The position numbers and the translations under genes are program-made. Below, piece by piece: positions 48,757-50,272 of a stretch of DNA of 64,000 nt. Origin of the DNA: Thermoproteota archaeon (GTDB lineage Archaea > Asgardarchaeota > Njordarchaeia > Njordarchaeales > Panguiarchaeaceae); contig JANJXX010000001.1 of the NCBI GenBank assembly GCA_024720975.1, positions 345,839 through 409,838 of the forward strand, written 5' to 3'. The first letter of the stretch is position 1. Each line of letters opens with the position of its first letter. Under the pieces are notes generated by a model that did not search any database, was not told where the DNA came from, and saw only the letters and a program-made list of their open reading frames with translations.

Positions 48757-50272
48757 AGGAGGTGATCCGCCCGCACCTTCCGGTACGGGCACCTTGTTTC
48801 GCCTTACGCCCCCTCCCAGCCTCTACCTTCGACCCGCCCCAGTAGAAACACACTAGGTGCTTCCACCGGAGCAGGCTTCAGGGAGAGGCCGGTCGGGTGC
48901 GGCGGCGGGCAGTGAGTGCAAGGCCGAGGGACGTATTCACCGCGCGCTGGTGACACGCGGTTACTATGCATTCCATGTTCACGGCGGCGAGTTGCAGCCG
49001 CCGATTCCAACCACGAGCCGGTTTACCGATTACCTCCCCCTCTCGGGGTTGGAACGGTCTGACCGGCCCCCTGTAGCCCGTGTGCAGCCCGGGGGATTCG
49101 GGGCACACTGACCTGCCGTCGTCCGCTCCTTCCTCCGGCTTGTCGCCGGCAGTCCCCCTACTGTTCCCCGAGACCCGAGAGGATCTCGGAGGCAAGTAGG
49201 GGCGCGGGTCTCGCTCGTTGCTGCACTTAAGCAGACACCTCACAGCACGAGCTGACGACGGCCGTGCACCACCTCTCAGCTACTCCGGCACCGTATTTAG
49301 CGGGGCCATCATTGAGCTGTCGCCCCCGGTGAGGTTCCGGGCGTTGAATCCAATTAAGCAACAGGCTCCACGCATTGTAGTCGACCCCCGCCTAAACCTT
49401 TCAGTTTCAGCCTTGCGGCCGTACTCCCACGGCGGCCCGCTTAACGGCTTCCCTTCTGGCGCGGCAACGCCACTTAGGCGTTGCCACACCTAGCGGGCAT
49501 CGTTTACAGCCGGGACTACCCGGGTATCTAATCCGGTTCGCTCCCCCGGCTTTCGTCCCTCACCGTCGGAGCCGTTCTGGCCGGACGCTTTCGCCACCGT
49601 TGGTCCTTCCGGGGTTAGGATTTCACCCCTAGCCCGGAAGTACCTCCGGCCTCTCCCGGTCCCTAGGTCTGCAGTAACCGTGGCCGTCCCGACCTTAAGA
49701 GCCGGGCTTTCACCACGGTCATGCAGACCCGGCTACGGACCCTTTAGGCCCAGCAATAACCGCGACACTCGGGGAGCTGGTTTTACCGCGGCGGCTGGCA
49801 CCAGCCTTACCCTCCCCTTATTCCCCGACCTGTTTACAGTCGGGAAAAGCCTCCCTCTCGGGAGGCACGCGGGCTCACCCCGTCGCGGTTTCCCGCATTG
49901 CGGAGGGCTCCCGACTGCTGCAGCCCGTAGGCCTAGGCCCCTTGTCTCAGTGGCCTTCTCCGGGCCCCCGCTTACACGGCCCGTACCCATCATCGGCTAG
50001 GCGGGCCGTTACCCCGCCTACAACCTAATGGGCCGCCGCCCCGTCCTCGGGCGGGACAAAGGCGCCCCTTTGTCCCCTTTCGGTGCGGAGGGGTTCCACC
50101 ATTCCGCACCTATGGAGGATTGAGCCCAGTTTCCCGGGGTTATCCTCCTCCCGAGGTTCGGTTGGCGACGTGTTACTGAGCCGTCCGCCACGCCGCGGGA
50201 TCGCGCGGCGTTCGGCTTGCATGTCTTAAGCTGAGCCCGCCAGCATCGCGGTCCGGCAGGTTCAACCGGTAT
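48757..50272 (-). rRNA. rrs: 16S rRNA (ends approximate)
   Basis: Minus strand: ATACCGGTTGAACCTGCC, GTGCCAGCCGCCGCGGTAA, ATTAGATACCC, GGATCACCTCCT anti-SD. Confidence 0.98.

Follow-up and report, generated by a model that had tools for sequence, protein, structure and literature searches.

The window, by which we mean the whole 64,000-nucleotide stretch of DNA analyzed here, carries a complete archaeal 16S rRNA gene on the minus strand at 48757-50272, which matches Rfam model RF01959 over its full length (model positions 1-1478; 1311 bits against a cut-off of 50). A 23S rRNA gene lies convergent to it, with a tRNA-Ala gene between the two (44923-50272 in all). The 16S gene sits inside a 410 kb contig and is the only SSU gene in an assembly of 1.36 Mb and 29 contigs that is 81% complete. 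Both strings from which an earlier note on this DNA had read an unusual decoding center were found on the minus strand. We set their register by a covariance-model alignment of the 3' domain to RF01959 and by a MAFFT alignment with E. coli rrsB (L150), which are gap-free in this region. Both alignments upheld the register and the states claimed in that note (U1400, C1406, G1408, C1409/U1491, G1495 and A1498), and the run against the archaeal SSU model revealed no register shift.

In E. coli numbering, taken from the alignment, the end of h28 and the 5' strand of the top of h44 (1392-1410) occupy 48901-48919 on the minus strand and include U1396 (48915), U1400 (48911), C1406 (48905), G1408 (48903) and C1409 (48902). 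The opposing 3' strand of the top of h44 (1490-1501; 48796-48807, minus strand) includes U1491 (48806), A1492 and A1493 (48805 and 48804), G1495 (48802) and A1498 (48799). The canonical decoding-site set of C1400, U1406.U1495 and U1498 is thus absent, with U1400, C1406-G1495 and A1498 in its place. The A site combines G1408 with a non-Watson-Crick C1409.U1491, as in a eukaryote-type A-site sequence. RNAfold predicts the whole of helix 44 (48793-48912, minus strand) as one long hairpin of -78.8 kcal/mol (z = -7.25 against shuffles). In the predicted fold, a 4-bp all-GC stem (1404-1407/1494-1497) stands above a 2x3 internal loop formed by G1408 and C1409 on one side and U1491, A1492 and A1493 on the other. 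A1498 has no compensating change.

Further changes lie in the structural core, all on the minus strand. In the 5' strand of the central pseudoknot (50259-50261), A17 (50261) replaces the universal U17; the 3' strand and the start of h28 (49392-49398) contain U918 (49396), U919 (49395) and A921 (49393). The last of these is the reciprocal partner of U1396, a position outside the earlier note's finding. Two pairs are therefore turned around, U17-A918 to A-U and U921-A1396 to A-U. The closing pair of h27 (49402-49430) is flipped as well, from the G885.U912 of relatives to U.G, with U885 (49429) opposite G912 (49402), and G884 (49430) is also changed. The h45 hairpin (48768-48791) retains its GGAA loop with A1518 and A1519, while its stem pairs 1514-1521 and 1515-1520 are swapped from G-C to C-G. 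Both sides have changed at 17-918, 885-912, 921-1396, 1406-1495 and 1514/1515-1520/1521, so that the helices are kept by compensation. Altogether the SSU shows 14 private deviations at otherwise invariant columns, as compared to 0-9 in the other SSUs of the phylum, and in most of these 14 a universal pair of the structural core has flipped reciprocally. No pairing or functional bases are lost: G530, A790, G926, C1054, G1338, A1339, C1402, A1492, A1493, A1518 and A1519 are identical to those of E. coli and of relatives.

Helix 69 of 23S rRNA is the partner of h44 in bridge B2a and contacts it near 1408 and 1495. Its loop is canonical here. At 46955-46973 of the window (plus strand), one helix 69 stem pair is compensated from G-C to A-U, and the loop, UAACUAUGA, equals the archaeal consensus.

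To recover conspecifics, we looked in public MAGs for near-identical homologues of the proteins adjacent to the rRNA genes and compared the surrounding DNA. Two further assemblies, GCA_038888305.1 and GCA_038894835.1 (contigs L302 and L305), have an SSU identical to that of the window at 1516 of 1516 positions, including C1406, G1495 and A1498. Across 14.5 kb of flanking DNA they depart from the window at 41-42 positions (99.66-99.68% identity), and the combination of an identical SSU with differing flanks indicates that the three are different strains of one species. A sister lineage came from a search of protein collections with the translation of a spurious ORF spanning the rRNA gene. This is L298, a 10 kb contig of metagenome ERZ2433807, whose SSU and that of the window are 91.9% identical. 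The two have in common A17, U918, A921/U1396, U885/G912, U1400, C1406-G1495, G1408 and C1409.U1491, and the canonical U1498 of L298 is the sole difference at the flagged states. With the same SSU in other strains and these states in L298, sequencing error and chimerism are excluded, and the earlier argument that the reciprocal 1406/1495 change is no sequencing error is borne out by independent assemblies.

Two more protein searches with spurious ORFs across the rRNA gene found nothing. Three contigs considered as possible relatives were set aside as not close: L299 and L300 are canonical at 1406, 1495 and 1498, and L301 ends before the 3' strand. The flanks of L298 gave no good match to any of four genus mates. 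The 16S gene of L298 (1955-3469) has no 23S gene or tRNA within 1.7 kb downstream, unlike that of the window, so the rRNA genes are arranged differently within the clade.

The distribution of these states in the phylum is nested. G1408 is present in every SSU sampled from it. Among genomes that contain SSU sequence, the nearest relatives are G013, G005 and G006, which belong to other families of the same order. Each of them has U1491, U1495 and U1498 as well as the swapped pairs of h45. The 5' strand is present only in G013, which reads A1396, U1400, U1406, G1408 and also C1409. Wherever the order relatives cover these two sites, they thus carry the window's bases: U1491 in three of three and U1400 in one of one. 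In a sample of 400 genomes from the phylum, 150 of 150 among the matches listed read AAGTCGTAAC, that is, U1495 together with U1498. In the SSU tree, a long stem leads to the window and L298, which group as sisters, with G013 adjacent to them. Sequence identity of the window's SSU is 80% to G013, 73-76% to most other members of the phylum, and 66-67% to its two most AT-rich members. C1406-G1495 and the flips at 17-918, 885-912 and 921-1396 are common to the window and L298, at about the depth of a family, and A1498, found only in the window's species, is the most recent change. This pattern of sharing gives the order of events: first G1408, at the level of the phylum, next U1400 with the C.U mismatch, at that of the order, then C1406-G1495, and finally A1498.

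The NCBI labels of near-identical proteins are Korarchaeota, Crenarchaeota and Thermoproteota, in agreement with a described mislabelling of Njordarchaeales (bioRxiv 10.1101/2023.09.28.559970). Among the other SSUs of the phylum, one relative (L013; G038:C2) has a 30-nt insertion between E. coli positions 1497 and 1498, inside the decoding-center strand, and L008, L010 and L013 carry insertions of 40 to approximately 330 nt in h27, after about position 906. These insertions are probably small rRNA introns.

The earlier note had implied that the combination is close to unique, and this does not hold for its parts. Its own proviso, that the states might prove common in archaeal clades, turned out to apply to some of them: G1408, U1491 and U1400 occur in relatives, and G1495 occurs in Micrarchaeota. 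In a sample of 101 Micrarchaeota genomes, G1495 was present in 7 of the 44 with a readable site, and U1498 in all 44. The full C1406-G1495 pair is also found in one Micrarchaeota genome (DPANN), one Saccharibacteria genome (CPR) and a MAG labelled as Clostridia (L098, L140 and L074). These three resemble the window in the reciprocal pair itself and in their rRNAs, which evolve fast and deviate privately at many conserved columns; L140 also has U1396. They differ from it in keeping U1498, C1400 and A1408 (CCAAG after 1406), and they are without the window's flips at 17-918 and 921-1396, U1396 of L140 aside. Their pairs have independent origins in unrelated lineages, the genome of the Clostridia-labelled MAG being 0.9 Mb. 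A contig scan for C1406 returned at least 120 rows, mostly chance matches in GC-rich bacteria, and 3 real SSUs; its pattern was over-degenerate, so the scan yields no frequency.

A1498 recurs too. It is found on genomic contigs of archaea (L192, L204, L225 and L251) and of several bacterial clades, often with U1400. These lineages are not close to the window (75-77% SSU identity). Where their 5' strand can be read, they have U1406.U1495, unlike the window; the exception is the organelle-like L263, in which G1495 stands opposite U1406. Among A1498 contigs longer than 1650 nt, 11 have U1400 as well (L168, L179, L185, L192, L204, L225, L230, L242, L265, L267 and L171) and 9 do not (L188, L201, L207, L224, L251, L252, L253, L261 and L268), representing roughly three independent lineages. 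The co-occurrence hints at epistasis between 1400 and 1498. In the range L152-L270, A1498 is also read in many metagenome records some 1.5 kb long (FPID, FPLS, FPLP and OBEP series), E. coli-like ones among them, and indels are scattered through these records. They have the look of full-length SSU reads derived from RNA, with m3U1498 misread by reverse transcriptase, and not of genuine variants; such misreads would inflate counts of A1498 in databases.

Position 1498 carries m3U in E. coli. In the 30S subunit of P. abyssi, Cm has been reported at the equivalent of 1402 and m3U at the equivalent of 1498 (PMC7005279). Because A1498 leaves no uridine there to carry m3U, methylation at 1498 has presumably been lost in the window species, judging from the gene sequence. 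The RsmE family (PF04452), which methylates U1498, gave no hit above cut-off in 14 of 14 genomes of the order, but it gave none in 4 of 4 archaeal controls either.

The earlier note had further inferred altered decoding geometry or antibiotic insensitivity. With all A- and P-site monitoring bases canonical, an altered geometry stays conjectural. As to insensitivity, published mutants speak against a role of the C1406-G1495 pair. An engineered U1406C/U1495G double mutant of Mycobacterium smegmatis (Hobbie et al., as discussed in PMC3140962) is reported to have aminoglycoside MICs almost unaffected. If there is any drug insensitivity, its main source would thus be G1408 and U1491, which are older states. 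G1491U raised the paromomycin MIC 512-fold (PMC3140962). The A site of the window, with G1408 and unpaired 1409/1491, is eukaryote-like and probably a poor binder of aminoglycosides. Single U1406C or U1495C mutations are strongly deleterious in E. coli, which explains the reciprocal nature of the change at 1406/1495 (PMC2504294). C1400 stacks on tRNA base 34, and C1400U strains grow with 53% translation activity (PMC2709574).

The flagged bases are real, inherited and structurally compensated. They are not evidence of a new decoding mechanism, as most of the states are found in relatives or in other microbes. We consider it likely that the gene encodes an unusual natural 16S variant, functional, compensated and evolved in steps, that performs canonical decoding on a slightly different scaffold. 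It would be the 16S rRNA of a thermophilic archaeon, apparently single-copy, whose framework nucleotides changed stepwise on a long, fast-evolving stem branch. G1408 is normal for the phylum, and U1400 with C1409.U1491 is common to relatives in the order. In the ancestor that the window shares with L298, U1406.U1495 would then have been replaced by C-G, with 17-918, 885-912 and 921-1396 flipped; U1498A would have come last, in one species. From the reciprocal changes at paired positions and the intact monitoring bases, we infer that the canonical decoding mechanism is retained. The stem above the A-site loop, being all-GC, would be rigid. The changes appear to be functionally neutral or thermostabilizing, and C1406-G1495 in particular is probably a compensated pair, near-neutral or stabilizing, with precedents.

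It is also conceivable, if rather unlikely, that the changes are an adaptive specialization and were selected for altered function. Candidate functions include resistance to natural products that bind h44, a changed P site or mRNA path (U1400 and A1498), and co-evolution with the translation system. Such selection would accord with the clustering of the changes in the central pseudoknot, h27, h28 and the top of h44, and with their persistence across lineages 8% apart in SSU sequence. It would also accord with the status of G1408 and U1491 as known resistance determinants, and with the presence of U1400 in about half of the long A1498 contigs. However, the monitoring bases and those that contact tRNA are canonical, 1400 excepted, and C1406-G1495 is reported to be nearly phenotype-free in M. 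smegmatis (PMC3140962). Moreover, unrelated lineages that evolve fast and have small genomes show the same states, as would fit relaxed or compensatory drift. In its boldest form, a heat-loving, eukaryote-related clade of Njordarchaeales-like archaea would have rebuilt its SSU core, down to the P-site base 1498 in this species, with a real shift of the P and A sites, in co-evolution with its translation system. We hold this to be improbable as well, but if true it would offer a natural experiment on the limits to which a decoding center can drift.

Guide RNAs bear on a different alternative, in which the gene is a divergent extra copy or pseudogene and a working canonical 16S is missing from the assemblies. 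A box C/D sRNA on the minus strand of contig C19 of genome G000 (approximately 84245-84320; L275:76-134) has a D guide to 16S positions 1399-1409 that places C1402 at N+5. In five of five genus members, this guide presents A opposite U1400 and C opposite G1408. Its base A9, kept in the same five, faces 1406, where it fits U1406 and mismatches C1406 (A.C). No perfect alternative target for this C1402 guide was found in the rRNA sense strands, and elsewhere in the genome there was no better one. A second C/D sRNA, with two guides, closely follows a tRNA on the plus strand of contig C27 (approximately 25977-26031; L276:78-132). Through its D' guide it can pair with the 5' end of the 16S, A17 included, which puts U13 at N+5; five of five species of the genus have an identical guide core, GGUUCAACC.

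The mismatch between A9, which would pair with U1406, and C1406 is the one observation that leans toward a canonical allele existing somewhere, and a MAG that is 81% complete leaves room for one. The mismatch is probably tolerated, since C1406 predates the split between the window and L298. The guides otherwise match the private states A17 and U1400, which would be indirect support for transcription of this 16S and its incorporation into ribosomes. Further evidence against an extra copy comes from the gene itself, which is of full length, has reciprocal changes at its paired positions, and lies within a 410 kb contig, with the 23S and tRNA-Ala genes alongside. Strains that vary in their flanks have it at 100% identity, and a second SSU fragment was not found in the assembly, at its 81% completeness. 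We therefore regard this reading as very doubtful. An assembly, sequencing or chimera artifact at the flagged positions has in its favor only the general point that rRNA genes are commonly mis-assembled in MAGs, and is barely credible when the gene is the same to the base in three assemblies of the species, the independent metagenome contig L298 shares all states but one, and the reciprocal changes span pairs up to approximately 900 nt apart.

Apart from the rRNA genes, a conserved stretch of about 35 nt, AGGCGGGCTCAGTGGTGCCCGTCGATGTAGCTCC, is found with close variants on at least five contigs of G000 (C8:2381, C11:200548, C23:99026, C25:38792, C25:41533, C25:53751 and C26:53355). The stretch probably belongs to a gene present in several copies or to a mobile element.

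The compensated functional variant that we favor is noteworthy in that many core positions thought to be universal have changed together in one lineage. Framework nucleotides regarded as "universal", namely C1400, U1406.U1495, U1498, U17-A918 and U921-A1396, can evidently be changed in a free-living archaeal lineage, with the monitoring bases fixed and paired positions altered reciprocally while the framework shifts. This natural, compensated set of variants is available for ribosome engineering. The universal primer sites at 1392-1406 and 1492 presumably each have at least three mismatches to this 16S, and amplicon surveys would thus tend to miss the clade.

The eukaryotic cytoplasmic 18S rRNA is one known system to which this decoding center can be compared. 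It has G1408 and, in higher eukaryotes, a non-Watson-Crick 1409-1491, to which the low sensitivity of cytoplasmic ribosomes to most aminoglycosides is due. U1406.U1495, C1400 and U1498 are retained in eukaryotes, where the mismatch (in human) is C.A, not C.U. The A site of the window is like that of 18S in combining G1408 with unpaired 1409/1491, and its G1408, in this likeness, is the state of the whole phylum sample. The combination linked to low affinity for aminoglycosides is thus common to relatives and not specific to this organism. The second comparison is the U1406C/U1495G mutant of M. smegmatis, in which, as discussed in PMC3140962, a U.U pair at the top of the A site is likewise replaced by a Watson-Crick C-G. 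Relative to that mutant, the pair in the window is natural and fixed in its clade, and occurs in an archaeal setting together with G1408, C1409.U1491, U1400 and A1498.
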